DNA of 64,000 nt from Candidatus Poseidoniales archaeon (lineage in GTDB: Archaea > Thermoplasmatota > Poseidoniia > Poseidoniales > Thalassarchaeaceae), in NCBI GenBank assembly GCA_012960975.1, contig DUAE01000055.1, positions 107,828 to 171,827 on the forward strand. Direction: 5' to 3'. The number at the start of each line of letters is the position of its first letter. The first letter of the stretch is position 1. Shown piece by piece: positions 8,669 through 60,765 of this stretch. A program made the position numbers and the translations under genes. Under the pieces are notes generated by a model. It was not told where the DNA came from. It was given only the letters and a program-made list of their open reading frames with translations, and made no database searches.

Positions 8669-8670
8669 CT

Positions 8671-11226: not shown

Positions 11227-11515
11227 TCATTTCCAACATCTTGTTGGTAACCATGAATCCTCCAACAACATTGATTGTTGCCATTACTAATGCAGCAAAT
11301 GCAAGCCAAGCAGCTGTACCTGGATTTCCATTATTGAAAGCTGCGTTAGATAAGAAAAGTGCACCTACAATTGAAATTCCTGAAATTGCATTGGCTCCAG
11401 ACATCAATGGAGTGTGCAAGGTTGGAGGAACCTTACTAATCAACTCAAAACCGAGGAAGATTGCTAAAACAAAAACGGTGATACTACCGATTAATGCGGC
11501 TAGTGTGAGGCTCAT
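11192..11515 (-). CDS. pntA: NAD(P) transhydrogenase subunit alpha part 2 (membrane)
   Basis: 107 aa with 3-4 TM helices. It sits between the alpha-1 and beta genes and overlaps both neighbours, which is the typical three-gene pntAA-pntAB-pntB layout. Confidence 0.8.
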   Translation of the reverse strand: MSLTLAALIGSITVFVLAIFLGFELISKVPPTLHTPLMSGANAISGISIVGALFLSNAAFNNGNPGTAAWLAFAALVMATINVVGGFMVTNKMLEMIAGKRRKKGGA

Positions 11516-12675: not shown

Positions 12676-12799
12676 ATTTTCTCACTCCTCATAATCAGCC
12701 TAGGCTCATCGTAGGTAAACTTCCGAAACGAAGTCGATTATTGAATCAAACGGATGATACAGTTCAGGTATGATATTGAATGAGCTATTAAATTATGAT

Positions 12800-13480
12800 T
12801 TAGAACAGTAAAACATACCCTATTCCAAAGATTGCAATATCACATATTGCATGCGATATCCAACAGACAAATATAGAATTAAACCGGAGGTAAAGCCAGG
12901 ACCAAATTACTCCTGCACCTAATATGCCAATTGACGATAACAATACTTGCCAAGGTTCAAAATAATAGGTCAGGGCTAGTGTGTGATGGACAGTAAAAAA
13001 TATTGCAGAACCCGCTATTGCTAATGGTTGATTATCGGTTATCTCAAATAATTTTGTGGTGACGAATTTTCGGAAAACGAATTCTTCGGCGAGCGAGTTC
13101 ACAAATATCCAATACACTACACCTAAAACAAATATTTTCGGCGTCAATAAACCAGTTTCCCCGATCTCAAATTTCATCAGATCAAGATTAATTGTATTGG
13201 AAAACAAGAAGTATATCATCAAAATAATTGAGGCCATTGCCATTCCTGAAAAAAAACCATATTTGAGCCCTAATGATTTGGGGATGGATAAATCTATTTT
13301 TTCCCTATCTACACACAGAGTCCAATAGATTGGCACCCCTATGAGAAGAATCTTTAATGAAATAAATGCAAATTGGGAAAATAATACTGTATAATCTAAA
13401 CCATAATTAATGTAAATAGACAAAGATGGAAAAATTCCAATTAGCAATAATGGCAAATAAGAGTTATGAGAATCTTTCAC
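12800..13480 (-). CDS. CPBP-family intramembrane glutamic endopeptidase (CAAX protease-like)
   Basis: Polytopic membrane protein with the three family motifs: AEEFVFRKF (EExxxR), FFTVHH (FxxxH) and SHAICD (HxxxD/N). Confidence 0.75.
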   Translation of the reverse strand: MKDSHNSYLPLLLIGIFPSLSIYINYGLDYTVLFSQFAFISLKILLIGVPIYWTLCVDREKIDLSIPKSLGLKYGFFSGMAMASIILMIYFLFSNTINLDLMKFEIGETGLLTPKIFVLGVVYWIFVNSLAEEFVFRKFVTTKLFEITDNQPLAIAGSAIFFTVHHTLALTYYFEPWQVLLSSIGILGAGVIWSWLYLRFNSIFVCWISHAICDIAIFGIGYVLLF

Positions 13481-13592
13481 AATTCCCCCTAAATGACGCC
13501 ACCGAATGAATCTTGTCCCTCACATCTTGAGAATGGCTCTTTCACTAAAGGCTAAGGACATTAGGCGAGCGCGTTCAAAATGAAGTGAGCTC

Positions 13593-14531
13593 ATGACACG
13601 TGAAGCGAGAAAAATTACAGTTATTGGAGCCGGGAATGTGGGAGCATCTTGTGCATTCGTTTTAGCTCAAAGAAAATTGGGTGAAATTGTTCTATTAGAT
13701 ATTTATGAAGGGTTCGCTAAAGGTAAAGCCCTAGATATGAGTCAAGGTGGACAGGTTTTGAATTACGATGGAATTGTCACTGGAACTTCGAGTTACAAAG
13801 ACATTACAGATTCGGATGTAATCGTCGTCACCTCTGGCTTCCCTAGACAACCTGGAATGACAAGAGAAGATTTAATCGGTAAAAATGCAGAAATTATCAC
13901 TCAAGTTGGAACCGGAATTAAAGAGCATGCTCCGAATGCTATCATAATCATGGTGACCAACCCACTAGATTTAATGACTTATCATATGCAAAAAGTCACA
14001 GGATTTCCTTCAAATCGAGTAATTGGCCAAGCAGGAATTCTAGACTCTGCACGTATGACTCATTTCGTTTCGGATGCAATCGGGTGTTCGAATGAAGATG
14101 TTCAAGCAATGGTATTGGGAGGACATGGAGACACCATGGTTCCACTACCAAGATATACAACAGCGGGTGGAATCCCAATTACACAACTTCTAGATGAAGA
14201 AACAATTGATGCAATTTCGAAAAGAACCGCGAATGGAGGGGGAGAGATCGTCAAATTACTGGAACGTGGAAGTGCCTTCTATGCACCCGGAAGTGCAGCA
14301 GCAATTATGGCAGAAGCCGTGTTAAATGACAGGCGAAGGCTATTGCCTTGTAGTGCTCTCCTAAACGGAGAATATGGGTTGAATGATGTATACATCGGCG
14401 TGCCAATAATTCTAGGTAAAAATGGAGTTGAAAAAATAATTGAATTAGATTTAGAAGATCATGAACTTATTAGTTTACAAGAATCTGCAAATTTCTATAA
14501 GACACAATTAAGCGAGATTTTAGGATACTGA
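13593..14531 (+). CDS. mdh: Malate dehydrogenase (LDH-like family)
   Basis: KITVIGAGNVGASCAF Rossmann motif; GFPRQPGMTREDL with the substrate-specifying Arg; catalytic-loop region MVLGGHGDTMVP. Confidence 0.85.
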   Translation: MTREARKITVIGAGNVGASCAFVLAQRKLGEIVLLDIYEGFAKGKALDMSQGGQVLNYDGIVTGTSSYKDITDSDVIVVTSGFPRQPGMTREDLIGKNAEIITQVGTGIKEHAPNAIIIMVTNPLDLMTYHMQKVTGFPSNRVIGQAGILDSARMTHFVSDAIGCSNEDVQAMVLGGHGDTMVPLPRYTTAGGIPITQLLDEETIDAISKRTANGGGEIVKLLERGSAFYAPGSAAAIMAEAVLNDRRRLLPCSALLNGEYGLNDVYIGVPIILGKNGVEKIIELDLEDHELISLQESANFYKTQLSEILGY

Positions 14532-30456: not shown

Positions 30457-31503
30457 CTATTTTTTCCCTCGAGCGGTGCCAAATTTTCTTCCACGCTTTT
30501 TATTGAGACCACCATCTTTTGATACAGTTAATTGTTCGTCTGACTCTCTTATTCCACCAATAATCAATGAACCGCTATTCAATAATTGTTCAGTAAGAGA
30601 ATCGGCCATGTCCTCATCTTGATCTGGAGTCCTCAATGCATCTTTAACAGAAAGATTATGATCCCGGATAACTCTTTCACGCTCCTCATTCGCCGCTTTA
30701 ATCTCATCTCGAATTTCATTACATTGGTCAATTATTTCTTTCATGTTTTCATGGACTTCGTTTGCAGCTTCCCGAGAAGTGATATAGGCTGCATGTAGGC
30801 GATCACCCTCTGCTCTCAAAAAATCCCTCTCTTCCAAAATTGGCTTAACATCTTCCCAAATTCCATCTGCTTGCTTGTGGCAATCAATCATAGCCTGATG
30901 CTCTGAATCCGCCTCCGACTTCAAAATAATTATGGAACCATCCATATCATTGAGGTCAATCTTGATAATTTCAAATTCAGCCACGGCTGGTAATAATTCA
31001 TTTCTTCGAGAAATCAAAGATTTTAGTTTTTTTAACAATTTATTTTCGGACTCTAGAGTTAAGCGACCATCGGTCATTATTGTATTTTCAATACGATCGA
31101 TTTCACTAACCGTTTCAGTCAATTGAAGTACGATGGATTTAGAATTCTTTTCATCAGAACGACGACCTTTCTTTTGGTTGATTAATTCTCGAATCTGGTT
31201 TTGAATCTCATCCCTCTTTGCTTTGTGAACTTTCGCTTGATCCCTAATGGTTTTTTGCTCATCTAACCGAGCCTTAATTGATTCACGCAATTCTTTTCCT
31301 TGTTCCTGAATTGCATTCCGAGAATCTGCAGCTCGTCGAGCATCTTCATTGTGACCATTGCGCTGATCACGCATACGGCGCATGCGTGTTTCCATAGCAT
31401 GTAGACGAGTTCTCAAATCGTCATCGGGCTTCTCAACATCTTCAGGCACAACTCGCCGAGAAGGGATCCCTTCTTCAATGAAACTACTTGAATCAGAGCC
31501 CAA
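30457..31503 (-). CDS. Coiled-coil protein A (archaeal COG1340-like), basic C-terminal tail
   Basis: 348 aa, Glu/Lys/Arg/Asp-rich heptad-like sequence. Central IDRIENTIMTDGRLTLESENKLLKKLKSL element; His-containing second half (EHQAMIDCHKQAD...EVHENMKE); tail KKRGRKFGTARGKK. Overlaps the upstream gene by 11 nt. Confidence 0.6.
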   Translation of the reverse strand: MGSDSSSFIEEGIPSRRVVPEDVEKPDDDLRTRLHAMETRMRRMRDQRNGHNEDARRAADSRNAIQEQGKELRESIKARLDEQKTIRDQAKVHKAKRDEIQNQIRELINQKKGRRSDEKNSKSIVLQLTETVSEIDRIENTIMTDGRLTLESENKLLKKLKSLISRRNELLPAVAEFEIIKIDLNDMDGSIIILKSEADSEHQAMIDCHKQADGIWEDVKPILEERDFLRAEGDRLHAAYITSREAANEVHENMKEIIDQCNEIRDEIKAANEERERVIRDHNLSVKDALRTPDQDEDMADSLTEQLLNSGSLIIGGIRESDEQLTVSKDGGLNKKRGRKFGTARGKK

Positions 31504-33061
31504 TTAGTGAAGTGAAAAATGGTAATATCGGTGAAAGAACAACAATGGCTGCACCTGCTAAAAATAAGCCACCAACTGTCAGTCGTAGCCTAGTAAACAT
31601 GTCCGGCCGATTTTGTACTGTTAATACTCGGCCAGAGATTAAATTCCCATAAATGTCTTCAAGACGTACAGAGACTGTTGCTTCTCCAGTATGGGCTGGC
31701 AAAAGACTCTGCCAAATTATATCTGTGGATTTTAGCGCATCTGGTAGTTGTTGAATGATCGAAAGGTTGCTTTTTCCGATTTTTGAAGGTTCGTACGGAT
31801 CAATCCGAAGGTTGTAAACACATTCATTAGGACGGAAATCAGGAGTTTGAACTCGTAGAATTAAATCGACAGAAGAGTCTCCTTGATTTAGAATGAAAGC
31901 GAACAAATTTGCTCGGCCAACAACTAAATTTTCCATGTCAACATCAAACCAAATATTTCTCGAATGCCCCTTTTCTAAATGCATTCTCATTCGGTCATGC
32001 AATCTAAAAAAAGACGCGCAACGGTTTCTAGCACGTATCAATAATCTATCCCACGTCTCTTCACCTAATTCTGGGTGATTGAATAATTCATCAATAATTT
32101 GAATCGGCATTAATAATTCCAATGAACTCCTAAATTCATTTTCGTTCATCAATCCCGCTCTCCGAATATGCAATAAATGTAACAAACCTTCTTGTAAATT
32201 TGTCATACTTCTACCGTCATCAATATTTTTCTGAACAAGCCGGAGATAATCAGAAATTTTCACTGCAAGGAGTGGATCTACATGCGCTCTAATTACATCA
32301 CTAAATGGCCGACGCAAAAGAGCAGGGTGAACTGGGGGGGAGAATGCATCGAGCATCCCCCAAGGTTCTGATGCGTTGAATCGGGAACGATTAGATACCA
32401 TATGAACACCATGACCCGACAACAACGCCCCCGTTGAAAGTGCCAAGAGAATAGGTATCCCCCTTGTAAAATCAGAAAATTGTAAACTGAGCAGTAGGAA
32501 TATTCCGGACAAAAACATCAGAAGAGTTGTAGCTCCAACCTGGCGAATTGATCCTTCAATAGTTTCTTTCATCTCTGCATATCCATGAGCACTTTTGAAA
32601 GTAAATCCAGATGTAGTCAATCGCTCTGATTGAAGATGAAATATTTTTCTTGTGAGAATTAATAGCCTAAATAATACGATTAATAATCCAATATCTGCAA
32701 CCAAAATAAAAAGAGCTAAGATGTAAAATCCACGATTTACATTAACCTCTCCAATCAACGGTTGAGCATTTTCCACCCACCAATTTGGTGCTGAATTAGT
32801 GAATGATTGTGCAAGCCCAAATAGTAATATCACCAGCATTGGCAAAACGGAAACAAATCTTGTTCCTCGACTAATAAAAAGTCGATCAATACGAACTAAT
32901 ATGGACTCATATGATTGATATTTAGTTATCATGTCAGATTTGTGTGGGTATCTATGAATTGGATCATCTCTATTCACGGTAGAATCTAAAATAGGTGCTG
33001 AAGGAGGGGGGGTTTCTTTTGAGTTGTTATTTTCGTTCAAAATGTCATTGAATTCTTTCAT
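31493..33061 (-). CDS. Membrane protein, 522 aa (hypothetical)
   Basis: About 4 TM helices in the first half, a hydrophilic domain of about 270 aa and a C-terminal TM (VGGLFLAGAAIVVLSPILPFF). In an operon between the DtxR-like gene and coiled-coil A. Confidence 0.5.
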   Translation of the reverse strand: MKEFNDILNENNNSKETPPPSAPILDSTVNRDDPIHRYPHKSDMITKYQSYESILVRIDRLFISRGTRFVSVLPMLVILLFGLAQSFTNSAPNWWVENAQPLIGEVNVNRGFYILALFILVADIGLLIVLFRLLILTRKIFHLQSERLTTSGFTFKSAHGYAEMKETIEGSIRQVGATTLLMFLSGIFLLLSLQFSDFTRGIPILLALSTGALLSGHGVHMVSNRSRFNASEPWGMLDAFSPPVHPALLRRPFSDVIRAHVDPLLAVKISDYLRLVQKNIDDGRSMTNLQEGLLHLLHIRRAGLMNENEFRSSLELLMPIQIIDELFNHPELGEETWDRLLIRARNRCASFFRLHDRMRMHLEKGHSRNIWFDVDMENLVVGRANLFAFILNQGDSSVDLILRVQTPDFRPNECVYNLRIDPYEPSKIGKSNLSIIQQLPDALKSTDIIWQSLLPAHTGEATVSVRLEDIYGNLISGRVLTVQNRPDMFTRLRLTVGGLFLAGAAIVVLSPILPFFTSLIGL

Positions 33062-33070
33062 TATTTCACC

Positions 33071-33718
33071 TCAAATTATTCGAGCAAGGATACGGAAACC
33101 TATTTTCTCTGAAAATTGAAAAGTTTTTTCTCCAATAAAATATTCATTATTTGAATGAATTATTTTTTGACCTATTTCTATACCTAAATCATTAATGGTT
33201 CGATTTTCAACACCACTAAGCAAAATTACCTCAATTATCGCAGAAGTATCAGGCGGTAATGTTTGGATGGGAATAAGCATACCGCTACCCACAATTGTGG
33301 GTTGTCGATTGATTAAAGGAATTTTTTCACCGTCTAAACGAAGTTCGGGGAAGCCCAACAATTCTTCTAATCGTGATTCCAATTCATCATTTACTACGTG
33401 TTCCATCTTACAGGACATCTCGTCAATATCTCCTTGAAAACCAATAATATCTCGCAATAATATTTGTAGAAGAGATTCTCGACGTTTGATTTTTGCAGCA
33501 TGATGGAATCCTTCAGAAGTTAATCTCGAACCACGGTATGGAATGTGCGTGACAAGTCCCCTCCTGGCAAGACGTTGTATCATTTCAGTTGTCGACGCAG
33601 GGCTGACGTTCATCATCTCCGCTAATTGAGTTGTCTTGACTATTTCATCAGGTTGTTCGAAGTGTGCTTCAAAAATCCGTTTGAGATACATCTCTTCGTA
33701 TTCACTTAATTCACTCAT
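33071..33718 (-). CDS. DtxR/MntR-family metal-dependent transcriptional regulator with an FeoA/SH3-like C-terminal domain
   Basis: SEYEEMYLKRIFE..., wHTH TTQLAEMMNVSPASTTEMIQRLARRGLV, dimerisation/metal region TSEGFHHAAKIKRRESLLQILL...MEHV, then a small C-terminal beta-domain. Confidence 0.75.
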   Translation of the reverse strand: MSELSEYEEMYLKRIFEAHFEQPDEIVKTTQLAEMMNVSPASTTEMIQRLARRGLVTHIPYRGSRLTSEGFHHAAKIKRRESLLQILLRDIIGFQGDIDEMSCKMEHVVNDELESRLEELLGFPELRLDGEKIPLINRQPTIVGSGMLIPIQTLPPDTSAIIEVILLSGVENRTINDLGIEIGQKIIHSNNEYFIGEKTFQFSEKIGFRILARII

Positions 33719-33723
33719 TCAAA

Positions 33724-35616
33724 TCACCCAATCTCTGAAATAAATTCTGAACGGCAGGCAGGACATCGAGATCTAATCGGGCGTTTAGCAATTGGAACAC
33801 GTAATACTTGGTCACATGTTGGACAGGATAGGAGATCATCCATTGATTGAGAAGTGAGATTCTGTTCTGGTTCAAAATTATTCGACAATTGATTCTCTAA
33901 GTTTACTGAATCATTCAAAACCTTCGTTTGGAAATTATTAACGGAAAATTGTTGAGTACACGCTGGACATTTTACATCACCTTCATGAGTTGATGGAATG
34001 TTCAACCTCTGATTACAACCAGGGCATTGAATTTCTTTTTTAGAATCAATTTGGTTTCGTCGTGAAATTCTAGTTTCCGATAAGCGTTTTGATTTAGCAT
34101 CAGTTGTAGAAGGAGTTCGTTGAGAAACTGCTCGATAAACAACAGCACTAGCCATTACCAGAGACAAACCCGATAATGCTCCAAAAACAGCAGCAGCCAT
34201 ATTGAATGGTAGAACTATACCTGTATCGATTTTTTCTTCAGCGATAATAGATATTTGCTCCGAAGTCACTAAACCTTCCATCAGCCAAATTATTTCTATA
34301 TCGACGGTTTGAGAATAGCTCCACGAAGGAATTGACAGTGAACTAGAAAATGAACCACCTGGTCCTACCGGCGAAACATTTTGTTCAGCGAGGATTAAGT
34401 TATCTGCGACATTTACTATTCGAATAATTCCAATTTGTGAAGATTCGGTGCCAGAATTATTTAACCAATAATTAATTGAAATGGGTTCTGATAATTTGGC
34501 TTGAGATGGAATAATATCTCCTATTTCAACGGTTGTTAATATAGCAGGGGGGTGCAATTCAAGAATTAAAATTGCATCGCCATCAGATGCAAACCATCCA
34601 TTTGCCGAACCAATTATCTGTAACCGATCCCCATCAGGGTGACCTAGAATTACTGAAATCATCCTTATTCCAGGAGACATTTCAAGGTTTAATGACTGGA
34701 TTTCAGTGTATTCATTATTGTTTTTTAATTGAATTGAAACATCAATCTCTCTTTCTTTTCCATCACCCATCAACAACTCAAAATTAATAATCAATCCATC
34801 ATCATTAGTCCAATCCATGTCCACTAATTGGATAGAAATTTGTTGTGCTTCTAAAATCACTAGATCCATGGTTCCATTCAAGTTGACTGAAACTCCACCT
34901 GTTGGTGAAATTATTCTCCAATCAATAGACTGTTGTCCATCTTGTCCAATCAAAAATGTAGTAATCACCTCCCTGCTTGAACCTGGAATAATATATACCG
35001 AATCGCCAATTGAGATAATATTTCCATCCGGTTTGTAAAGACCCAATTCAACTTCACCACCATATTCACCATTATTATGAACAAGAATAGATGCAACTAA
35101 CTCATCTCCGACATGTGCGGGTTGACCGATGATAGCAACATCAGGAGTTCCTGCTGCAGTGAAATTGATGGGGTTAGGGCCAATTCTCAACTCAAGTATT
35201 TCAAACACGTCTGAATTAATAAGTTCAAGTTTACACAAAAGGTTTCCTTCGTACACCGGTCCAAATTGAATCTCGATTATAGAATAATCATCTTCATTCA
35301 ATATTCCACTATTACCACCGTACCATTGGCCATTAAATCCAAAACTGAATTGCCAAGACTCATTCCCAACTGAAATCTGAGATAGTTCGATACTCAATCG
35401 AACAATATCTCCAGAAGAAATTGTAGAGTTTTCATTATCTAACCCTGTCGAACCGTCTACAATCCTTACATCCCAAAGAGATGATTCTTCTATAGAATAA
35501 TTACCGACCTCTGCATGGGTCTCAGTAACAAAAATTAATATTATCAACAATACTATTGATGAACGAGAGATAGAAGTCAAACTCTCACCGATACTCATCA
35601 ATACTCGTCGAATCAA
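33724..35616 (-). CDS. Single-pass surface protein: CARDB-like extracellular repeats, TM, cytoplasmic tail with two MJ0042-type zinc ribbons
   Basis: Signal/TM at the N-terminus. LVHNNGEYGGEVELGLYKPDGN and WLNNSGTESSQIGIIRIV resemble CARDB repeats. TM AAAVFGALSGLSLVMASAVVY. Then CPGCNQRLNIP...VKCPACTQQFSV and CPTCDQVLRVP...SRCPACRSEF. Confidence 0.6.
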   Translation of the reverse strand: MIRRVLMSIGESLTSISRSSIVLLIILIFVTETHAEVGNYSIEESSLWDVRIVDGSTGLDNENSTISSGDIVRLSIELSQISVGNESWQFSFGFNGQWYGGNSGILNEDDYSIIEIQFGPVYEGNLLCKLELINSDVFEILELRIGPNPINFTAAGTPDVAIIGQPAHVGDELVASILVHNNGEYGGEVELGLYKPDGNIISIGDSVYIIPGSSREVITTFLIGQDGQQSIDWRIISPTGGVSVNLNGTMDLVILEAQQISIQLVDMDWTNDDGLIINFELLMGDGKEREIDVSIQLKNNNEYTEIQSLNLEMSPGIRMISVILGHPDGDRLQIIGSANGWFASDGDAILILELHPPAILTTVEIGDIIPSQAKLSEPISINYWLNNSGTESSQIGIIRIVNVADNLILAEQNVSPVGPGGSFSSSLSIPSWSYSQTVDIEIIWLMEGLVTSEQISIIAEEKIDTGIVLPFNMAAAVFGALSGLSLVMASAVVYRAVSQRTPSTTDAKSKRLSETRISRRNQIDSKKEIQCPGCNQRLNIPSTHEGDVKCPACTQQFSVNNFQTKVLNDSVNLENQLSNNFEPEQNLTSQSMDDLLSCPTCDQVLRVPIAKRPIRSRCPACRSEFISEIG

Positions 35617-52232: not shown

Positions 52233-53048
52233 ATGTCAAGTCAAAACCTCTCAACTCGACGCATCTTCATTCTGAGCGTTCTAGCCATATTCTTGGCCTC
52301 CACTACTCAGGCCTATCACACTGGCATCAGCGGTGATGCTGACAATAAAGGAGAAATTGCAATTGCTGGTTGCACGTGCCATTCTGGAGAGCCAGATAAC
52401 TCTGTGACCGTCGTGCTAGACGGTGTTCCGTATCACTATGAAACTGGCATAGTTTACGAAATGAAAATTCAATTAATTGGCGGAGCAGAAATTGATACAT
52501 CATCGCAAACAGGAGGGTTTTCAATGCTTGTCAACATCGGTTCACTATCGGCATCTGAGGGCTATGAAAACGATGTTCAAAACTGGGAAGATGACGAGAA
52601 AAGATTGACTCATTCCAACGCAGGATCAAAAACAGAAGAAAGGATTTGGCATTTCACCTGGACAGCTCCCGAGAGTGAATCGGGGGTCGTGGAATTTTGG
52701 ATTAGTGGAAATACTGTAAACGGAGATTCAATTCCATCGGCCTTGGATCGATGGAATCGAGTAACTACCTCAGTATCTGAAGGAACTGATGACGGGAGGA
52801 CACGCACTATTTTTTCGGGCAATGGAGAAATAACTCCTCCAGCACCAACAGACACCCACGTCAATCTACATGACATGGGTGCACCATTGAAAGCACATTG
52901 GTTAGGATTGCTAGGATTCGGAGCAGTAGTGTTAGTAATTATCTTCTGTGGATTATTCCTTAGATACGGATTATCTCATCACTCTACTGGAAGATCGAAC
53001 CTACTTAAATTAAGAATAAAACATCTAAGACGGGGTGACCAAATATGA
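52233..53048 (+). CDS. Secreted Reeler-like GCTCH-motif protein with a C-terminal TM anchor; first gene of the Rieske/cytochrome b operon
   Basis: Signal peptide IFILSVLAIFLASTTQA. AGCTCHSGEPDNSVTVVLDGVPYHYETGIVYEM...GGFSMLV...LTHSNAGSK...IWHFTWTAPESESGVVEFWISGNTVNGD...DRWN. TM WLGLLGFGAVVLVIIFCGLFL. ATGA overlap with the next gene. Confidence 0.6.
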   Translation: MSSQNLSTRRIFILSVLAIFLASTTQAYHTGISGDADNKGEIAIAGCTCHSGEPDNSVTVVLDGVPYHYETGIVYEMKIQLIGGAEIDTSSQTGGFSMLVNIGSLSASEGYENDVQNWEDDEKRLTHSNAGSKTEERIWHFTWTAPESESGVVEFWISGNTVNGDSIPSALDRWNRVTTSVSEGTDDGRTRTIFSGNGEITPPAPTDTHVNLHDMGAPLKAHWLGLLGFGAVVLVIIFCGLFLRYGLSHHSTGRSNLLKLRIKHLRRGDQI

Positions 53049-53494
53049 AAGAAGATATGGTTCTAAAACTTCTCCGGCAAGTAAAATCAGGAGAAGTTTC
53101 CATAGAAGATGCTCAATCTGCTTTAGAGGGAGTGAACCTTTCTGAAGAAGCGTATGAAGTCGCAGTCGATCATGGAGTATTCAATGAACCTGCGCCAGGC
53201 ACAATAGTCAGAGCAAGTATTCGTCCATCTGGAGAATCGTTCTTAGTAGTCCTAATTGGGCTATGGGGGATTCTTTGGACATTGTACTGGGCAGGTTCAC
53301 TGACTTACGGACTTATCCATCACTGGGATCAGCAACTTCTATCATTTTTCCTAGCCATGACCTTGTTGACAGTAATTATTCTTGGCATAGTCTATATCAG
53401 ATTTGTAATGCCTGACCTGATTATAGTTAAGCATCGTAGAAATAAATTCATTCAACCAAACGACCCAGAAGGTTGGCAACAATTCGAGGTATAA
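53045..53494 (+). CDS. Small two-TM membrane protein with an N-terminal helical-hairpin (SHOCT-like) segment
   Basis: 149 aa. LKLLRQVKSGEVSIEDAQSALEG, then two TM helices. Translationally coupled within the operon. Confidence 0.45.
   Translation: MKEDMVLKLLRQVKSGEVSIEDAQSALEGVNLSEEAYEVAVDHGVFNEPAPGTIVRASIRPSGESFLVVLIGLWGILWTLYWAGSLTYGLIHHWDQQLLSFFLAMTLLTVIILGIVYIRFVMPDLIIVKHRRNKFIQPNDPEGWQQFEV
53486..53490 (+). promoter_or_regulatory. Shine-Dalgarno-like GAGGT upstream of the Rieske gene
   Basis: cGAGGTataattATG, with a 6-nt spacer to the ATG at 53497. Confidence 0.4.
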
Positions 53495-53496: not shown

Positions 53497-54351
53497 ATGG
53501 CTAGACGATTCAAATTACGGCCAATTCCTGGTGAAGAATCGGACACCTCAGAACCAGATAGTATGATTGATCGAAGATCATTTCTTCGTTATTCATTCAA
53601 TACTGCAGCTGGTGCAATTACAATGGCGAGCCTCGGAAGTATCGGGTTCGCATCTTTGTTAATGGGTCAAGCAGAATCATCAGGTGGTGATTCTGCCGTC
53701 AGATTCTGGGTGCCATCTGGCGCAGAAGATTCAGTTTGGTATGGAGATAGGCACTTAGATGCGATGAATTATACTTCCTTCGTTGAGGCTGCAGCTACAA
53801 CAAACACAGGGATGTCAGGTGCACAAGGCGTATGGTCAGGGATGCCGGTAAGTGTCATCTATGTACCCCACGAAGAAAATAAAAATTTGGGATTGATTGA
53901 AAATAAACCTAGATTTCAATTCTTAGAAGGATACACAGCGGATGGCAAATACGTAGGATCAGGGCATGAGCTCAATGAAAAAGAAGAATTCTCGGCCCTT
54001 TCAATCCATGACAACCTAATAATTATCTTCTCAAGATGCCCTCATCTTTGTTGCATTCCAGGATGGCAATTAGTCGCTAATGATTTCACAAACGATAATT
54101 GGACATCTGGCGGTTCAGACGGAGGAGGAAATAAATTATTTTGTATTTGTCATTCGAGTAGATTTGACCCTACCGTTATCGAAAAGAACAGAAATAGAAA
54201 CAGATCGACCGGTTCAGAATTCGAATTTTTTGGCGTGAAGAGATCGGGTGGACCGGCGCCAGTCGGGATGCCACTCATTCCATATGTCCTCAATGGCGAT
54301 TTACTAGAAGCCCTTCCGGACTTCAAAGACTGGTATACATATTGTGACTGA
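53497..54351 (+). CDS. Rieske [2Fe-2S] iron-sulfur subunit with a twin-arginine signal
   Basis: Tat motif IDRRSFLRY plus a hydrophobic helix. Cluster boxes CPHLCC (CxHxxC) and CICHSSRFD (CxCHxS). The track ORF opens at 53473, but the ATG at 53497 has an SD and does not overlap. Confidence 0.8.
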   Translation: MARRFKLRPIPGEESDTSEPDSMIDRRSFLRYSFNTAAGAITMASLGSIGFASLLMGQAESSGGDSAVRFWVPSGAEDSVWYGDRHLDAMNYTSFVEAAATTNTGMSGAQGVWSGMPVSVIYVPHEENKNLGLIENKPRFQFLEGYTADGKYVGSGHELNEKEEFSALSIHDNLIIIFSRCPHLCCIPGWQLVANDFTNDNWTSGGSDGGGNKLFCICHSSRFDPTVIEKNRNRNRSTGSEFEFFGVKRSGGPAPVGMPLIPYVLNGDLLEALPDFKDWYTYCD

Positions 54352-54362: not shown

Positions 54363-55229
54363 ATGATACAATTTTGGTTCTTATGGATTTTTATCTCAAT
54401 CGTTGTTGTCCTCGTGGCTCTAACATTGCGTAAGGAGCGTGAGGAAATACCGCGAACAGATATTCTGCGCGCAGTAGAAACTAGTGCCTCTAACATGGGT
54501 CTTGCAGAAAAATTATTTCTGTGGGCATTTTCTTGGCTTGATACACGATTCCGAATTCAAGATTATTGGGGCATGAGTAGAGACACCTATCACAGCATCC
54601 ATCGTCAAATGCCGTTAACCCATGCTGAAAAATATAAATTACGAATTATTTGGTATTGGTATCCACTCTATTGTTTGGGTGGAATTTCGTTCTTGGCATT
54701 TATCATCCTCGTCATCACAGGGACAGTTCTCGGACTTTATTATGTCCCAGGTGGAGAAGGAGATCCAACCCCCGCTTACTCATCGATGGAATTCATCATG
54801 ATTCAGCTTCCATTCGGCTATATCATTAGATCCATTCATCATTGGGCTACCCATTTCATGGTTGCATCTGTTTTCTTACACATGTGCCGCGTTTACTTCA
54901 CTGGTGCATACCGTAACCCTCGTGAACTCAATTGGTTAATCGGAGTTTCATTGATGTTCTTCACAATTTTCTTTGGTTATTCAGGTTACCTCCTCCCTTG
55001 GGATAGCTTGGCATTCGGTGCTGCAACTATCGGAATTAACATGGCAAATTCTACACCTCTTATCGGAGCATGGGTTGCAAAAGCAATGTTTGCTGGAACA
55101 TCCCTCTCAGGTCAAACTGTAACCCGAATGTATTTCCTCCACGTATTCATATTACCTGTTATTGTAACTACACTAATCATCGCTCATCTGTTTATCGTTT
55201 GGGTTCAAGGAATTGCGGAGCCACATTGA
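54363..55229 (+). CDS. Cytochrome b, N-terminal (b6-like) di-heme subunit
   Basis: RSIHHWATHFMVASVFLHMCRVYFTGAY has helix-B His ligands 13 residues apart. YSGYLLPWD. FLHVFILPVIVTTLIIAH has helix-D His with 14 residues between them, as in b6/Bacillus-type cytochromes. Confidence 0.85.
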   Translation: MIQFWFLWIFISIVVVLVALTLRKEREEIPRTDILRAVETSASNMGLAEKLFLWAFSWLDTRFRIQDYWGMSRDTYHSIHRQMPLTHAEKYKLRIIWYWYPLYCLGGISFLAFIILVITGTVLGLYYVPGGEGDPTPAYSSMEFIMIQLPFGYIIRSIHHWATHFMVASVFLHMCRVYFTGAYRNPRELNWLIGVSLMFFTIFFGYSGYLLPWDSLAFGAATIGINMANSTPLIGAWVAKAMFAGTSLSGQTVTRMYFLHVFILPVIVTTLIIAHLFIVWVQGIAEPH

Positions 55230-55238: not shown

Positions 55239-58007
55239 ATGGGATTGATTGAACGATTCGGACGCATTGCTGATGTATATATCAGTGAGAGAGATCAACT
55301 TGTCACCGCAGAACATGAACGGCGACGAGTATTCACCGGCCAACCATTTTGGCCAACAGAAGTATTGAGGGACACAATTATTTTAGCTGCAATGGTAATG
55401 GTTCTTGCATTCTATTGTTGGTTAATTCCTCCTCCTTTACATAGTGCAGCAGATCCATTTGCACAGGCAGGCTTTGTGTTCCCTGATTGGTATGTTTTAT
55501 TCTCGTATGGTTACTTACGTTGGGGAGAATATCTACCACAATTCATCATCCCAGCTGGGCCGATAGGTGCTTTCTTAGGAACTCCTGTAATCTCATGGAA
55601 CGCAGCATGGTGGGGAGCTTTTATCACCGGATTACCAGTTGGAATTCTAACATTACCTCCATTCTTAGGAGGTCGGGAAAAGAGACCTGCTGAAGATCCA
55701 TGGTTTGCGACGGCCGGGGCAGTTTACCTTGCTCATGTTTGGTTTATTTCCGTATTTTCAATTAACATATTCTTACAACTCTACTCAAAGGATTTGTCAA
55801 ATTTTTGTTGGTTGAATTCTCATGGTGCTTTATTCTGTGGTAGGCAAGCACCATGGACTGCTCAAGTTTTCAATACAATACCTTGGTTATTAACCGGTGT
55901 TTTCATATTCGCAGTGATTTATTTTGTTGTCCGAAAATTTGGACTAAATTCAATGGGTGCAAGGTTAACACCGGCGCTAGGAAAGCAAATTGCAGTCGGA
56001 TCCGCAGTTGCAGCTGTCCTAATTTGCATAGTAACATGGCCTATTTACGAAAGTGGTTTCTGGGATTACGGAGGATTAGGAGCCATGGAGGATATCGAAG
56101 AACTCGAAGAACTCCGAGGACAACCATCAGATACTCTCGTTCATGCTGAAAAAGGCAATGCTTGGAGTGATTGGGGGGACGAGTGTTTACCTTACGAAGA
56201 TACAGGAAATTTAGCAATTTGGGAAAGTTTGAGCCATGGTGAAGATTTTGCTGATTATTGTGTGATTCCAGCAACACATTGGGTTAATTGGGGATTATTC
56301 CAACCAACGCGAACAACGCTTCTAGATTTCTCAGGAGTAAACGAACATACCGATACAAATAATGGGATTAATGGAGCTTCGATGGATTATTCTTATGACG
56401 GGAGTGATACAATTACAGAAATAAAATCATTCACAATTGAAAATTTTGGAATTGGCTTAGTTCCCGTAGACATTAGCTGTAACTTCCGCACGACAGTCCG
56501 CGATGCAGGCGTACATTCCCAATCCCTTACTCTAAATGATGCAACTGGAACTGAAATCTGGAGTACTAGCGATGGAATTTGTAGTTCAACCACTCTGAAT
56601 CTTGATTCAGGATCATCTTATTCATTGCATTTCTCCTGTATTAGTACAGATGTTGATTCATCGGTCACAATGATTACTGGATTTTCAGCAATAGCATTCC
56701 AACCTCTTCTGCTGGCCGAAGACGGCACCGCGTTCTTGAGGTCAGAATCAGACAGTAGTCCATCAGAATTAATGACTCTATCCATCGATAATCCTACTTA
56801 TCATAAAAATCCGAAAGCCTTGGATGCGAAATTAATCTATTCTCTATTCATCCCATGCTTAGGTGTTGGGGCGATGGTTTTCATGTTGATGAGATCATTG
56901 GCTAGGGGATATGAGTGGGAAATGAACAAATGCTACGGCTGCGATTTATGTGATGATGCATGCCCTGTTCGATTGTTTACTGCTGGTGATAAACTCAACA
57001 TCATTTACAATACCTGGAACAATGAAGATGATGGAGTCCCCCTCTATTCTTGTTTGACGTGCAGTGCTTGTACAAATGCTTGTCCACAATTAGTCGATTA
57101 CGACTCTTATATCGATATTCGACGAAATCTAATCGTAGGGGGCCCACCTGCTGCTGAAATCCCACACTCTGTCCTGCAAGCAGTTTTAGCTGCAGAAGCG
57201 GAAGAAGATGCAGATGAGTTTTTCATCTCAATAGAGGATTACCCCATTGATTCGAATGTGGGTTATTACCCGGGTTGTGTTGATTACATCGATCAAGAAA
57301 TGATTTTCAGTAGTGTCAACGAAGGTAGCATGGATTTGGGTGATACTACGACTGCAGCATTCACATTGTTTGAAGAAATGGACGCAGAGGTCACCTATCT
57401 TGGTAGAGATTTCTTGAAGTGTTGTGGGCATGACCAGAAATGGCAAGGAATGACCGAAGTCTTTGAAAAATTAAAGGCGTATAATCAGAAAAAACTTGAT
57501 GATAGTGGAATAGATACCCTAGTTACATCTTGTGCAGAATGTTTCCGGACTTTTGCGATGGATTACGAATTAGAAAATATGAAGGTAATGCACACTACTG
57601 AATATCTAATAGAAAATGGATTTGACATGGAATTGTCAACAGAAGAAGATATGACAGTCACATTCCACGACCCTTGCAGGCTCGGAAGGCAAATGAATAT
57701 CTATGAGGAACCTAGGAATTTGATAAGGGCAGTCGATGGTGTTGAATTAGTCGAAATGGAACATACAGGAGAAGATGCTCTTTGCTGTGGCGTATCCAGC
57801 ATGATGTCTTGTAACGAGGATAGTCGTGCGTTAAGAATCCAAAGATTCGATGAGGTAAAAGCAACTGGTGCAGACATTATGTTGACATCATGTCCAAAAT
57901 GCGTCAGCCATTTTGAATGTCTGAAGTTTGAAGGAGACCCTTCCAATAATATCGAAATTCTTGATGTTGTTTCATTCCTTGCAAACCAAATAAATAATCG
58001 AAAATAA
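55239..58007 (+). CDS. Fusion protein: cytochrome b C-terminal/subunit IV-like domain + extracytoplasmic domain + HdrD/GlpC-type 2x[4Fe-4S] and 2xCCG domain
   Basis: aa 1 to about 270: TM helices with FVFPDWYVLFSYGYLR (PEWY-type Qo motif). aa about 280-545: hydrophilic acidic domain. TM LIYSLFIPCLGVGAMVFMLM. Then CYGCDLCDDACP and CLTCSACTNACP, YPGC...KCCGHD...TSCAEC and HDPCRLGR...LCCGVS...TSCPKC. Confidence 0.8.
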   Translation: MGLIERFGRIADVYISERDQLVTAEHERRRVFTGQPFWPTEVLRDTIILAAMVMVLAFYCWLIPPPLHSAADPFAQAGFVFPDWYVLFSYGYLRWGEYLPQFIIPAGPIGAFLGTPVISWNAAWWGAFITGLPVGILTLPPFLGGREKRPAEDPWFATAGAVYLAHVWFISVFSINIFLQLYSKDLSNFCWLNSHGALFCGRQAPWTAQVFNTIPWLLTGVFIFAVIYFVVRKFGLNSMGARLTPALGKQIAVGSAVAAVLICIVTWPIYESGFWDYGGLGAMEDIEELEELRGQPSDTLVHAEKGNAWSDWGDECLPYEDTGNLAIWESLSHGEDFADYCVIPATHWVNWGLFQPTRTTLLDFSGVNEHTDTNNGINGASMDYSYDGSDTITEIKSFTIENFGIGLVPVDISCNFRTTVRDAGVHSQSLTLNDATGTEIWSTSDGICSSTTLNLDSGSSYSLHFSCISTDVDSSVTMITGFSAIAFQPLLLAEDGTAFLRSESDSSPSELMTLSIDNPTYHKNPKALDAKLIYSLFIPCLGVGAMVFMLMRSLARGYEWEMNKCYGCDLCDDACPVRLFTAGDKLNIIYNTWNNEDDGVPLYSCLTCSACTNACPQLVDYDSYIDIRRNLIVGGPPAAEIPHSVLQAVLAAEAEEDADEFFISIEDYPIDSNVGYYPGCVDYIDQEMIFSSVNEGSMDLGDTTTAAFTLFEEMDAEVTYLGRDFLKCCGHDQKWQGMTEVFEKLKAYNQKKLDDSGIDTLVTSCAECFRTFAMDYELENMKVMHTTEYLIENGFDMELSTEEDMTVTFHDPCRLGRQMNIYEEPRNLIRAVDGVELVEMEHTGEDALCCGVSSMMSCNEDSRALRIQRFDEVKATGADIMLTSCPKCVSHFECLKFEGDPSNNIEILDVVSFLANQINNRK

Positions 58008-58017: not shown

Positions 58018-58302
58018 TTAATTAAAGGCGAGAAATCCTGAATATATTGCAGCAATAAAGTTTAACAAAACACCTATAATAGTCATTTTTGCCATTTGAG
58101 GATTGTTATAACCCATTGCGATAAGACATAGAAAGAAACCAATTAAACCACCACATGCAAATGAAATCCAAGCAATTTCAACAGAGATAAATATCGCCAT
58201 CACAAACCAAATGGAGATTGGCAATAATAATCCCAACCAAGCGGTTGAATACTTCCACCAAGGCAACTCCTCGACTGAGATTTCCATGGTTAATCCAAAC
58301 AT
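58018..58302 (-). CDS. Small three-TM membrane protein (hypothetical)
   Basis: 94 aa and strongly hydrophobic (LGLLLPISIWFVMAIFISV, FACGGLIGFFLCLIAM, IIGVLLNFIAAIYSGFLAF). Confidence 0.4.
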   Translation of the reverse strand: MFGLTMEISVEELPWWKYSTAWLGLLLPISIWFVMAIFISVEIAWISFACGGLIGFFLCLIAMGYNNPQMAKMTIIGVLLNFIAAIYSGFLAFN

Positions 58303-58367: not shown

Positions 58368-58700
58368 ATGACCAATGTCTCAGACCTCTCTGAGCGGCGT
58401 TCAAAACAAAAAAACCGTATAAGGCAAATGTTGAACACGGTTAGAGCTGAAGAACGCCTCAACCTCAAAGGTGGTGAAGATGCAGTTGCTTGGGTAAAAG
58501 AAGAATTATGCATCGGTTGTGATCAATGCACAATCGTCTGTGATGATGAAGCAATCGAATTATACGATACCCCGTTGGCCAGCCCGATTCTCAATATCGA
58601 TGTAAATCGCAAAGCGAGAGTTTTGAGAGAACCCTGTACTGGTTGCAAATTATGTGTTCTCGCTTGTCCGACAGACGCGATAATAATGATAGATAGGTGA
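58368..58700 (+). CDS. 2x[4Fe-4S] ferredoxin-domain protein
   Basis: CIGCDQCTIVCDDEAI and CTGCKLCVLACPTDAI. Started at the internal ATG 58368, because the track ORF from 58218 overlaps the opposite-strand membrane gene. Confidence 0.6.
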   Translation: MTNVSDLSERRSKQKNRIRQMLNTVRAEERLNLKGGEDAVAWVKEELCIGCDQCTIVCDDEAIELYDTPLASPILNIDVNRKARVLREPCTGCKLCVLACPTDAIIMIDR

Positions 58701-58705
58701 GATAT

Positions 58706-59017
58706 ATGAGTAAAGAAACGGAAGATGAACCCCTTAGATTCGGGGCAGAATTTGGCCCAAAACGTACCGACTTAAACAAAGGAGTCTCATTATCGACGTT
58801 CAAATCACTTGTTTGGGTTTCAAATTTGGGTGGATTGATTCTGTTCGCAATTGGTTTAGAACTATTGATGGTTCAACAACAATTCTATCTGGCATTAGGC
58901 TGTTTAGTAGGTGGAGTAGTCATTGCTCTTTTCCCTTCAAACTATGAAATTGTAGGGATGGAAGGAATAGAAATTGATTCAGGGGACTCAGAAAATGAAA
59001 AGGAACCAAAAACTTAG
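58706..59017 (+). CDS. Small two-TM membrane protein (hypothetical)
   Basis: The ATG at 58706 is preceded by AGGTGA; the track start is GTG 58697. Two TM helices and an acidic tail. Confidence 0.4.
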   Translation: MSKETEDEPLRFGAEFGPKRTDLNKGVSLSTFKSLVWVSNLGGLILFAIGLELLMVQQQFYLALGCLVGGVVIALFPSNYEIVGMEGIEIDSGDSENEKEPKT

Positions 59018-59541: not shown

Positions 59542-60765
59542 TTAATTTTCTAATTCTGCATATTCTGCAGACAACCCGAGAAGAGCTAATTCAGCAACCA
59601 AGGTATGCCAACCTGAAGCATGCAGAAGAGCCTCTTTACCACCCTCGTCCATCTCGAGTTTTGATGGGGTGATAAAACGTGTCGAGGGGGTATTCAGATT
59701 TGCAAGATCTCCTTTCTTGTTATTGGCTCTGTAGAACCAAGCATCGACATCACCACCAACTGAATACATACAAGGTTCAATGACATAATCCCCCCACTTC
59801 AAACGAGTTGGAACACCTTCTTGGATTAAAAAATCAATAACTTCTGCCCCTCCTTTCCCATAGGTTAATTTATTCATTTTTCTTTTAGATAAATTCAATA
59901 ATTCATCACCAGATGAAATTTCAAGAATTCCTAATCCGTATGTTCCAGAATCGTTTTTTACAAATAATTTTGGCTTACTATCAATTCCTAATGAACGATA
60001 TTTGTCCCGCAACATGTCTAGGCAATCATCAACGTCCTTAGCAAGGGCTTGACGGCAAGTTTCCTGTTCTAGACATTTATTTCCACTAACAAACCAATGT
60101 GTCCCTAAAACCCAAGGGTCAATTTCCAATAATTCTGCCACTTCATCAATAAATGGCTGAACCACTCTGAAATGATTGGATTTTTTCCGCTGAAACCACC
60201 CTAAACCCTGAGGGGGTGCAACTGGAATTTTACCTGAAGGTATTTTTCCAGCAGTAAGATCATTATTCGTGATAATCAAATCCGGTCGTTGACCATTTAC
60301 CAATACTCCATCAGGACATATAGTCACTGGAGATAATGGAAGGGGGCCAGATAATGCCTCAATTTCTGCAAAGTCTGCCAATTCTACTGATCCAACTCTA
60401 CACTCTCTACCTGCTGATTGTATCAGTTTTTTTATTACCAATATATTTTCAGCATAACCTGGATTACGGGTATTTGATTCAGGCCAAAGTAACACAAGTT
60501 GTGAACCGGGGTATTCGTTATCCAACCAATGACGTATAGGTCCAACAAGGCGTTGTAAATCATCTTCTTCAATATTATTAAATCCAGCAGGAAAAGCATT
60601 AATATCGACTGCGGCAACCTTCCAACCCGAATCTCTAATGTCGACAGACCCGTATAGTGGAGCTGGATATTGAGCACGTTTGTGTTCGAACCATTCGGCA
60701 AGCATTTCTCGGTTTGCTTCTAATCGTGGCCGCAATTCATTCAATAAATTCGACTTATCATACAA
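59542..60765 (-). CDS. gshA: Glutamate--cysteine ligase, rare 'T. ferrooxidans-type' GshA family (putative)
   Basis: 407 aa. YPAPLYGSVDIRDSGWKVAAVDINAFPAGFNN matches my memory of the signature of this GshA family (PFYxSVDLRNxGFKxAPVDxNLFPAGFNN). Overlaps the upstream asnB stop by 8 nt. Confidence 0.5.
   Translation of the reverse strand: MYDKSNLLNELRPRLEANREMLAEWFEHKRAQYPAPLYGSVDIRDSGWKVAAVDINAFPAGFNNIEEDDLQRLVGPIRHWLDNEYPGSQLVLLWPESNTRNPGYAENILVIKKLIQSAGRECRVGSVELADFAEIEALSGPLPLSPVTICPDGVLVNGQRPDLIITNNDLTAGKIPSGKIPVAPPQGLGWFQRKKSNHFRVVQPFIDEVAELLEIDPWVLGTHWFVSGNKCLEQETCRQALAKDVDDCLDMLRDKYRSLGIDSKPKLFVKNDSGTYGLGILEISSGDELLNLSKRKMNKLTYGKGGAEVIDFLIQEGVPTRLKWGDYVIEPCMYSVGGDVDAWFYRANNKKGDLANLNTPSTRFITPSKLEMDEGGKEALLHASGWHTLVAELALLGLSAEYAELEN

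Follow-up and report, generated by a model that had tools for sequence, protein, structure and literature searches.

A subunit IV fused to an HdrD-like iron-sulfur module in the Rieske/cytochrome b6-type operon of marine group II archaea

The marine group II archaea (MGII), of which no member is in culture, rank with the most numerous archaea of the plankton. Their "MGII-specific complex III" has been described as "a cytochrome b and a Rieske protein" without a canonical bc1 complex and, like their "orphan RnfB", has gone unexplained (Tully 2019, PMC6336850). What completes such a complex, and where do its electrons go? The question is raised by a locus in a 64,000-nucleotide stretch of DNA, hereafter the window, from a Candidatus Poseidoniales archaeon of the Thalassarchaeaceae (assembly GCA_012960975.1, contig DUAE01000055.1), in which an open reading frame (ORF) of 922 amino acids (aa) with an ATG start occupies positions 55239..58007 of the + strand. 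A first-pass annotation, made from the letters of the DNA, had read this ORF as a fusion of the subunit IV-like C-terminal half of cytochrome b with an HdrD-type Fe-S and CCG domain, and had proposed that it provides a second, cytoplasmic exit for electrons. Here we present an analysis of the fusion, its operon and its relatives, in which the protein emerges as the probable subunit IV of a menaquinol-oxidising Rieske/cytochrome b6-type complex, bearing what would be an HdrD-like Fe-S wire on its cytoplasmic end.

A search of 5.8 billion proteins returned 471 homologues of the fusion; the best 120 of these are all 925-939 aa long, match the query over its whole length (100% coverage) and derive from numerous independent contigs, some of them of ~1.49 Mb. 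The sources of the homologues are named Thalassarchaeaceae, Poseidoniales and Marine Group II. Using one genome per species, we found the fusion as a single ORF of 915-967 aa in 56 Poseidoniales loci, MGIIa and MGIIb both, and always in the same gene order: choice-of-anchor V protein, DUF7318 protein, Rieske protein, cytochrome b6, fusion. Within MGII, identity to the window protein is 65-81% for the N-terminal domain, 32-57% for the middle domain and 78-88% for the Fe-S/CCG part, which is the best-conserved part of the protein. This conservation, the full-length homologues and the existence of short-form fusions in unrelated archaea mean that an assembly chimera, or a frameshift joining two genes, can be dismissed with near certainty. 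The first-pass annotation was thus correct in regarding the ORF as a true covalent fusion, one ORF in 56 Poseidoniales species genomes and not an assembly join, and each element it had listed (a transmembrane (TM) N-terminus with PDWY, an acidic domain of ~260 aa, two CxxCxxCxxxCP motifs and two CCG repeats) was recovered where it had been reported. The survey of orthologous operons that it had called for shows the fusion retained in the 56 MGII loci and short forms in other archaea.

The identity of the N-terminal domain had to be established by several routes. PF00032 (Cytochrom_B_C) gave no match on the full fusion at E<=0.1, nor on aa 1-280 at E<=10. A phmmer comparison of aa 1-280 with all PDB sequences gave six matches, all of them b6f subunit IV (best E 0.0028), in a register running from GQPFWPTEVL (GEPAWPNDIL in b6f) through ADPF...PDWY (ADPF...PEWY), while an exhaustive phmmer search of the same segment against 1.84 billion representatives yielded only 109 relatives. 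Distant full-length relatives pass the PF00032 gathering score (P0176 with 48.7 bits, P0186 with 44.4 bits), and a family profile of 80 sequences picks up bc1 cytochrome b in its C-terminal half (E 2.5e-12) as well as b6f subunit IV (E 1.7e-7). In these 80 sequences, which are otherwise 33-39% identical, P82, D83 and W84 are invariant and the tyrosine nearly so. The residues belong to FVFPDWYVLFSYGYLR (aa 78-93), with PDWY itself at aa 82-85 (55482..55493); this Qo motif of the PEWY type sits in the loop that follows helix E, which topology places on the p side, and the PDWY variant was reportedly associated with low-potential quinones by Kao and Hunte in 2014. The gene also occupies the position of subunit IV, since it starts at 55239, directly after a split four-helix cytochrome b6 that ends at 55229; the same order recurs in the 56 MGII loci and in related archaeal loci outside MGII (L081-L090, from a set numbered here up to L092). 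By homology, then, the N-terminus is a diverged b6f subunit IV that in the window protein falls below Pfam recognition, and it supplies the PDWY side of the Qo (quinol-oxidation) site on the outer face. Profile searches accordingly uphold the first-pass reading for the CCG (PF02754) and Fer4 families, which score above their cut-offs, but not for Cytochrom_B_C, where PDB matches, the family profile and the relatives have to stand in for a direct match.

Six TM helices are predicted in the fusion, at ~39-62 (E), ~122-143 (F), 154-183 (G), 206-242, 245-271 and 532-554, each call being an agreement of hydropathy, the positive-inside rule and AlphaFold2 (AF2) secondary structure. Helices E, F and G form the subunit IV or cytochrome b C-terminal domain (aa 1-190, 55239..55808; this and all following segments on the + strand), which is assigned from the PDB matches, the family profile and PDWY. 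The two extra helices that come next (aa 206-271, 55854..56051) are evident from hydropathy, charge and the AF2 model and fall in a gap of the short forms; the loop between them (232-250, RK..R..K) is positively charged and cytoplasmic by topology. Then comes the acidic external domain (aa 275-531, 56061..56831), recognised by its charge and in the AF2 model, and a last TM helix (aa 532-554, 56832..56900), equivalent to helix H of long cytochromes b according to hydropathy, AF2 and comparison with the short forms. This helix brings the chain back to the cytoplasm and is followed by the basic stretch RSLARGYEWEMNK. The remainder comprises a 2x[4Fe-4S] ferredoxin-type, HdrC-like domain (aa 561-617, 56919..57089), identified by Pfam Fer4 families and the profile, and two HdrB-like CCG domains (aa 676-892, 57264..57914), identified by PF02754, Foldseek and their cysteine pattern.

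The predicted sides are as follows: N-terminus inside, as in b6f; PDWY outside; acidic domain outside; Fe-S/CCG part inside. Since the number of membrane crossings is even, the cluster sites are placed on the cytoplasmic (n) face, beside cytochrome b6. The short-form relatives consist of E, F, G and one further helix, with the Fer4 domain directly behind; the MGII form is thus the short form plus an insertion of two helices and the external domain, which leaves the orientation unchanged. The helix count bears out the sides given by the first-pass annotation, with the Fe-S/CCG part cytoplasmic and the middle domain external, and by homology and topology together the Fe-S/CCG module must, on this prediction, lie on the n face next to cytochrome b6.

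The external domain (aa 275-531) contains 40 D+E against 10 K+R, and five cysteines. Its AF2 model shows helices plus a beta-sandwich at a predicted local distance difference test score (pLDDT) of ~85-93; Foldseek returned weak, generic GOLD-like fold matches only, and Pfam no match, even at E<=10. Its length ranges from nothing in the short forms through ~260 aa in the window protein to ~680 aa in extra-long MGII forms, and we regard it as a fast-evolving, lineage-specific accessory outside the redox core. The extra-long proteins, P0275, P0310 and P0327 (~1334-1349 aa), carry the insert of ~680 aa in place of ~260, likewise without a Pfam match for the insert. A different combination was seen in P0166 (577 aa), which joins subunit IV to a Laminin_G_3 (ConA-like) domain and has no Fe-S domains.

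The cytoplasmic part of the fusion shows the HdrD-type pattern, i.e., two [4Fe-4S] motifs and then two PF02754 domains, each with CXnCCGXmCXXC. CxxCxxCxxxCP occurs twice, as CYGCDLCDDACP (aa 565-576) and as CLTCSACTNACP (aa 605-616), and Fer4_9, Fer4_8 and Fer4_10 match above their Pfam gathering scores; for the two CCG domains, PF02754 has E 2.3e-24 and 85.7 bits against a cut-off of 20.6. The cysteines run C680-x47-C728C729-x35-C765xxC768 in the first CCG domain and C813-x35-C849C850-x34-C885xxC888 in the second, and the ten-cysteine Hdr-type set is complete over both. Across the 80 sequences of the family profile all eight Fer4 cysteines are invariant and the CCG cysteines invariant or nearly so; A766 and E767 within the C-A-E-C of the first CCG domain are invariant as well. 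The later parts of the profile match HdrC (E 5e-10) and HdrB (E 2e-6). The cut-off of an NCBIfam equivalog was not reached for any of TfrB, DsrK, GlpC, GlcF, LdhH, TmcB and HmcF, the best being TfrB with 113 bits against 385.

With HdrDE, DsrMK and HdrBC the module has in common an Fer4 dicluster joined to two CCG domains, HdrC plus HdrB being equivalent to HdrD, and the complete ten-cysteine CCG set. It differs from HdrDE and DsrMK in its membrane partner, which is a Rieske-type cytochrome b6 plus subunit IV, hence bc-type and with a Rieske protein, and not of the NarI/HdrE/DsrM type; nor is MGII known to use coenzymes M and B (CoM/CoB). The best solved relative of aa ~555-922 is mycobacterial EtfD (Rv0338c; PDB 9OJN; Courbon et al. 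2026, PMC13083937), by phmmer (E 6e-23), by profile (E 5e-40) and as the first-ranking Foldseek match (E 1.6e-14); other Foldseek matches of the CCG region are LutA (TM-score 0.78) and HdrB (TM-score ~0.63). Like the fusion, EtfD is one polypeptide with a membrane domain and, on the cytoplasmic side, 2x[4Fe-4S] and two CCG domains. Its cryo-EM structure shows CCG clusters, 2x[4Fe-4S], haem b and menaquinone arranged as a continuous wire with gaps of 4-9 A, along which electrons move inward from the electron-transfer flavoprotein (ETF) (PMC13083937). There are two differences. The membrane domain of EtfD is a NarI/HdrE-like, five-TM, mono-haem domain, whereas that of the MGII protein is a Rieske-type subunit IV; and where EtfD has C-T-G, with a linear [3Fe-4S] cluster, and a capping His583 (CxHC), the MGII protein has C728-C729-G and C765-A-E-C768. 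The C-T-G and the capping histidine are marks of a purely electron-transferring, oxygen-shielded site (PMC13083937). The fusion thus stands outside every named CCG equivalog, EtfD and canonical HdrDE/DsrMK, and by homology it is best described as a subunit IV in a Rieske/cytochrome b6 operon.

That operon, whose Rieske and cytochrome b genes had been recognised in the first-pass annotation and are confirmed here, consists of five genes on the + strand. Cytochrome b6 (54363..55229; PF00033 E 1.9e-41) is of the four-helix split type and matches cyanobacterial and plant b6 with E 5.5e-41, the haem-b ligands His159, His173, His260 and His275 being in register. Its Cys104, within CLGG of helix A, aligns with the FYCLGG of b6f, where this residue holds haem c_n covalently at the quinone-reduction (Qi) site, and CLGG occurs in 52 of 52 complete MGII orthologues. 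The nearest relatives of this cytochrome b outside MGII are haloarchaeal (53-57% identity). The Rieske [2Fe-2S] protein (53497..54351) is divergent, with TIGR01416 at E 3.8e-10 as its only profile match and no match in Pfam or among PDB sequences; it has a twin-arginine signal, DRRSFL (RRSF at 34), box I CPHLCC at 189 and box II CICH at 224, and the boxes are kept in 47 of 47 orthologues. Ahead of it lies the gene for a small membrane protein of 149 aa (53045..53494; DUF7318, PF24002 E 3.6e-5, below cut-off). Every MGII locus, like L083-L092, has a DUF7318 gene ahead of Rieske or cytochrome b, and the small protein of L081 (77 aa, 4456..4689) has a WDQR motif in common with it; this is probably an unrecognised structural subunit of archaeal Rieske/cytochrome b complexes, from Haloferax to MGII.

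The first gene of the operon, which overlaps the DUF7318 gene by ATGA, encodes a secreted choice-of-anchor V protein of 271 aa (52233..53048; NCBIfam NF041895 E 2.5e-25). In 27 aligned orthologues it has a G-C-x-C-H motif with C47, C49 and H50 invariant; the C-terminal TM anchor and tail are nearly invariant, and the soluble domain is only ~45-63% identical. The same slot is filled in related operons (L081, L086, L087, L088, L091) by proteins of several kinds: halocyanin in Haloferax, and elsewhere a cytochrome c, a pentahaem cytochrome, a weakly Reeler-like protein or a blue-copper-like protein with an anchor similar to the MGII one. No protein of the MGII operon matches a cytochrome c or cupredoxin family, and the operon has no recognised p-side acceptor (cytochrome c1, cytochrome f, dihaem c or halocyanin). 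For the anchor-V protein itself, a profile search of the PDB gave nothing significant, Pfam gave weak Reeler hints (best E 0.055), and a single-sequence model had a pLDDT of 45. By analogy with the proteins found in its slot, it is a candidate p-side electron acceptor, maybe of a new kind for a Rieske/cytochrome b complex.

Compared with the split b6f or menaquinol:cytochrome c reductase systems, including haloarchaeal halocyanin-Rieske/cytb (Baymann 2012, PMC3509893; Dibrova 2017 subfamily N, PMC5600118), the MGII operon has the same order of Rieske, cytochrome b6 and subunit IV, the same four haem-b histidines, a PEWY-type motif in subunit IV, CxGG as in cyanobacterial and firmicute b6, and DUF7318 as in Haloferax. 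Unlike in these systems, its subunit IV is extended by two extra TM helices, the external domain, one more TM helix and the HdrD-like module, and the operon is without a gene for cytochrome f, c1 or halocyanin, with the anchor-V gene in the slot. Haloferax differs further in having a plain subunit IV and lacking the CxGG cysteine.

Related operons outside MGII show what the Fe-S module travels with. Short-form fusions of 543-713 aa (PF00032, Fer4 and 2xCCG) always stand directly after Rieske and cytochrome b. In L081 and L082 the genes behind the fusion encode HdrC-, HdrB- and HdrA-like proteins and MvhD, and multihaem cytochromes lie on the flanks. The L081 cluster in full (3729..13632, GCA_964347835.1) encodes a pentahaem cytochrome c, a small TM protein, Rieske, a cytochrome b with CFGG, subunit IV fused to Fer4 and two CCG domains, HdrC-like, HdrB-like, HdrA-like (1010 aa) and MvhD proteins, and a multihaem cytochrome, and hints at physical coupling between a Rieske/cytochrome b complex and a bifurcating Hdr module of the flavin-based kind. 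L083, from Ca. Geothermarchaeales (123..9710, GCA_046757245.1), continues after the fusion with FrhB/FdhB-like, HdrA-like and MvhD genes, a second, stand-alone HdrD-like gene and GcvH, so that the fusion replaces HdrBC beside FrhB-HdrA-MvhD; GcvH is a lipoyl carrier, as in sulfur-oxidising Hdr-like systems. In L084 a polyferredoxin-MvhD fusion follows; the cytochrome b of that locus (3304..5931, 875 aa) has an N-terminal extracellular extension of ~620 aa with Big_5 domains before a normal four-helix b6 core.

Simpler arrangements also exist. Subunit IV is fused to Fer4 alone in L087 (a Halobacteria metagenome-assembled genome (MAG)), L089 (a Joint Genome Institute (JGI) metagenome contig) and L090 (a MAG); in L089 and L090 a CCG protein, a ferredoxin and a small protein are encoded by separate genes behind it. 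In L088, a Thermoplasmata MAG, extra TM helices join subunit IV to Fer4, and the gene runs off the contig end. Plain subunit IV is found in cultured Haloferax (L086), a JGI contig (L091) and a Halobacteriales MAG (L092). Matches in Methanoperedens and anaerobic methanotrophic archaea (ANME) that a genome scan had returned were rejected as fusions; they are stand-alone HdrD-like proteins beside HdrCBA-MvhD, and the Ca. Methanoperedens counterpart of the L081/L082 cluster begins with such a gene.

Rieske/cytochrome b complexes with additional subunits have precedents. In anammox R/b complexes the extra subunits are NAD(P)-linked flavoproteins encoded by separate genes. Those of Methanoperedens (Arshad 2015, PMC4683180) likewise have a core carrying extra electron-transfer subunits, and L081 resembles that cluster in its pentahaem c, small protein, Rieske and cytochrome b; the extra subunits there are p-side multihaem cytochromes, whereas in MGII the addition is an n-side HdrD-type domain fused to subunit IV.

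The cysteine that would hold haem c_n follows the Fe-S module across these loci. CxGG is present where subunit IV carries an Fe-S domain (MGII, L081, L084, L087, L088, L089 and L090) and absent where it is plain (TLGL in L086, ALGG in L091, SLGS in L092), a rule that holds for all MGII and for nine of ten other loci, L083 being the exception, in a small sample without phylogenetic correction. Of 120 cytochrome b homologues, CLGG is found in 82 and TLGL in 16, and all those named as cultured haloarchaeal species have TLGL. The correlation links the Fe-S module to the n-side haem and quinone site.

A likely partner on the cytoplasmic side lies just downstream. The "RnfB" of MGII annotations is a 110-aa 2x[4Fe-4S] ferredoxin (58368..58700, +, the ORF being callable from 58218) with Fer4_21 at E 9e-12 and TIGR01944 (rnfB) at E 6e-11, below cut-off. 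Its gene overlaps by GTGA, and is thus translationally coupled to, that of a 106-aa two-TM protein (58697..59017, +) with weak similarity to DUF7322 (PF24008, E 0.018 only). The ferredoxin gene is within 0-3 kb of the fusion in 50 of the 56 MGII loci, the pair occurs together, on either strand, in 51, and in L089 and L090 the ferredoxin gene is inside the operon, directly after the CCG gene. We regard the ferredoxin as a candidate cytoplasmic redox partner of the fusion and the two-TM protein as a possible membrane tether.

These elements can be assembled into a ferredoxin-input wire leading to the haem b_n/c_n-Qi site, a mechanism that we consider to have about an even chance of being right. 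The Fe-S chain would lie within electron-transfer distance of haem b_n/c_n and link this haem site with a one-electron carrier in the cytoplasm, for which the RnfB-like ferredoxin is the likeliest candidate. In MGII, as aerobic heterotrophs, net flow would be inward, from ferredoxin via the CCG clusters, then the pair of [4Fe-4S] clusters and haem c_n/b_n, to menaquinone at Qi. The menaquinol would then be oxidised at Qo of the same complex, with one electron passing through Rieske and a p-side acceptor, probably the anchor-V protein, to an oxidase. Such a complex would be a ferredoxin:menaquinone reductase as well as a menaquinol oxidase, the hard-wired counterpart of the ferredoxin-to-haem-c_n route proposed for cyclic electron flow in b6f, where transfer from ferredoxin to haem c_n is a long-standing hypothesis (PMC5600118). 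Input is favoured because EtfD, the nearest relative with a solved structure, works as a wire into menaquinone. It is favoured also because the ferredoxin is a conserved partner, the module co-occurs with the haem c_n cysteine, and elsewhere the electron-donating modules HdrA, FrhB and MvhD stand behind the fusion; the HdrA/MvhD-type neighbours in L081 and L083 would fit a role of the quinone as high-potential acceptor of cytoplasmic modules.

Several observations weigh against a ferredoxin input. The full Hdr-type cysteine set, with C-C-G and C-A-E-C and without the C-T-G and capping histidine of EtfD, would suit a catalytic thiol/disulfide site as well or better. The ferredoxin gene of MGII is near the operon and not inside it, and in a syntenic region proximity is weak evidence. 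Haem c_n is deduced from one cysteine only, the spacing between Fe-S clusters and haem is likewise a deduction, and L083 has the fusion with YLGS, i.e., without the haem c_n cysteine.

The first of these points bears most directly on the electron exit proposed in the first-pass annotation, according to which the low-potential electron from Qo would travel by way of b_p and b_n (and c_n) to the Fe-S chain, and the CCG clusters would reduce a cytoplasmic disulfide or another acceptor. The fusion would then work like HdrDE or DsrMK, but with a cytochrome of the bc type where those have a NarI-type one, and would replace or bypass the Q cycle in a quinone-based electron bifurcation. Since both CCG motifs keep the Hdr-type cysteines, with neither an EtfD-type capping histidine nor the Cys-to-Thr change, a catalytic thiol/disulfide site, and with it this direction of flow, stays in contention. 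The closest stand-alone homologues of the fusion are moreover HdrD-type proteins from Methanoperedens and ANME (~40% identity), and Hdr genes stand behind the fusion in L081 and L083. Against an exit, most quinone-linked CCG proteins, such as EtfD, GlpC, LutA and GlcF, feed electrons in. MGII are described as aerobic heterotrophs and show no trace of CoM/CoB metabolism (Tully 2019, PMC6336850), and open catalytic Hdr clusters are expected to be oxygen-sensitive (PMC13083937).

A thiol substrate might be sought in the gene for GshA (glutamate-cysteine ligase, E 5.5e-94; 59542..60765, -), which lies 1.5 kb downstream of the fusion, makes a low-molecular-weight thiol and, on sequence, implies one of the gamma-glutamylcysteine type in the window archaeon. 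Its adjacency was rejected as specific evidence for such a substrate because the whole region is syntenic: GshA is near the fusion in 33 of 56 loci, unrelated genes on its flanks are at least as well conserved, and no disulfide-carrier gene is specifically linked. Altogether we consider an outward current possible but unlikely. Of the original proposal, the covalently attached cytoplasmic Fe-S/CCG module stands; an outward direction of flow is not established, and the evidence points to an entry or exchange port at least as strongly as to an exit.

Input could also come from another donor than ferredoxin. If the fusion worked as EtfD does, ETF reduced by acyl-CoA dehydrogenases would dock on the CCG domains, and beta-oxidation and amino-acid oxidation would be coupled to complex III. 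EtfD is the top match by sequence, profile and fold, its homologues FadF and DgcB accept electrons from ETF as well, and acyl-CoA dehydrogenases occur in all families of MGII, which degrade fatty acids and proteins (Tully 2019, PMC6336850). No etfAB genes, however, were seen next to the operon, whether in the window or among the genes called in the related loci under study; the conserved neighbour is the ferredoxin, and the MGII protein is missing the NarI-like five-TM haem domain, the C-T-G with its linear 3Fe-4S cluster, the histidine cap and the long disordered tail of EtfD, which makes this donor improbable. That the Fe-S/CCG domain carries no through-current at all and serves as a redox or iron sensor, as an assembly or stability domain or as a relic is very improbable: the AF2 model has low confidence in the ferredoxin-domain part, but 18 of 18 cluster-ligand cysteines are invariant or nearly so in sequences only 33-39% identical, the Fe-S/CCG part is more conserved than the rest of the MGII protein, and the same module, fused or split, accompanies redox partners in several archaeal lineages.

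Returning to the ferredoxin-input wire, a broader proposal can be put forward tentatively, namely that the fusion hard-wires a b6f-type complex, in nature, for a ferredoxin:quinone reductase mode, and that this complex both reduces and oxidises menaquinone and in anaerobic relatives docks HdrA/MvhD flavin-bifurcating modules. If true, it would explain how MGII reoxidise ferredoxin, what the orphan RnfB does and why haem c_n occurs in non-photosynthetic lineages, and the docking of HdrA/MvhD modules would link flavin-based with quinone-based bifurcation in one complex. The analysis as it stands accounts for the missing subunit IV of MGII, for the RnfB-like ferredoxin and probably for the missing p-side acceptor. 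Its reach extends beyond MGII, as several archaeal lineages have fusions of subunit IV with Fer4 only, or with Fer4 plus CCG, nearly always in company with the haem c_n cysteine and in some beside HdrABC-MvhD. A covalent n-side Fe-S port bears on the long-debated entry of ferredoxin-level electrons at Qi/haem c_n of b6f-type complexes, as in cyclic electron flow, and on the coupling of quinone-based and flavin-based bifurcation, and the sequences found give structural and biochemical work concrete targets.

The first-pass annotation had not been aware of any earlier description of the architecture. The Fe-S/CCG fusion is not mentioned in the accessible reviews of Rieske/cytochrome b diversity, and targeted full-text searches found one sentence only, in the description of Ca. 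Angelarchaeales, a sister lineage in the Thermoplasmatota (Diamond et al. 2022, PMC9038741), which reports hdrD-like and rnfB-like genes beside complex III and independently raises the idea of ferredoxin entry. That sentence, unlike the present analysis, contains no fusion to subunit IV, no MGII versions, no link to haem c_n and no Hdr-linked versions. The L088-L090 layout (subunit IV fused to Fer4, CCG protein, ferredoxin) is likely the equivalent of the Angelarchaeales one. The claim of novelty therefore holds for the fusion architecture, which is essentially undescribed, but an hdrD-like gene beside complex III has been mentioned before.

A few minor features of the window complete the picture. 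Right behind the stop codon of the fusion, on the opposite strand, is a hydrophobic ORF of 94 aa (58018..58302, -) with homologues in 8 of the 56 loci, which is a candidate coding ORF only. A scan for promoters and terminators gave 19 promoter-like sites against 19.4 expected, with bacterial-type models that are uninformative for an archaeon. Three large adjacent ORFs (347, 521 and 629 aa) at 30457..35616 (-) have no Pfam match at E<=1e-5. The remaining window is ordinary archaeal chromosome, with genes for RNA polymerase subunits, FttA, PntAB and tRNAs.

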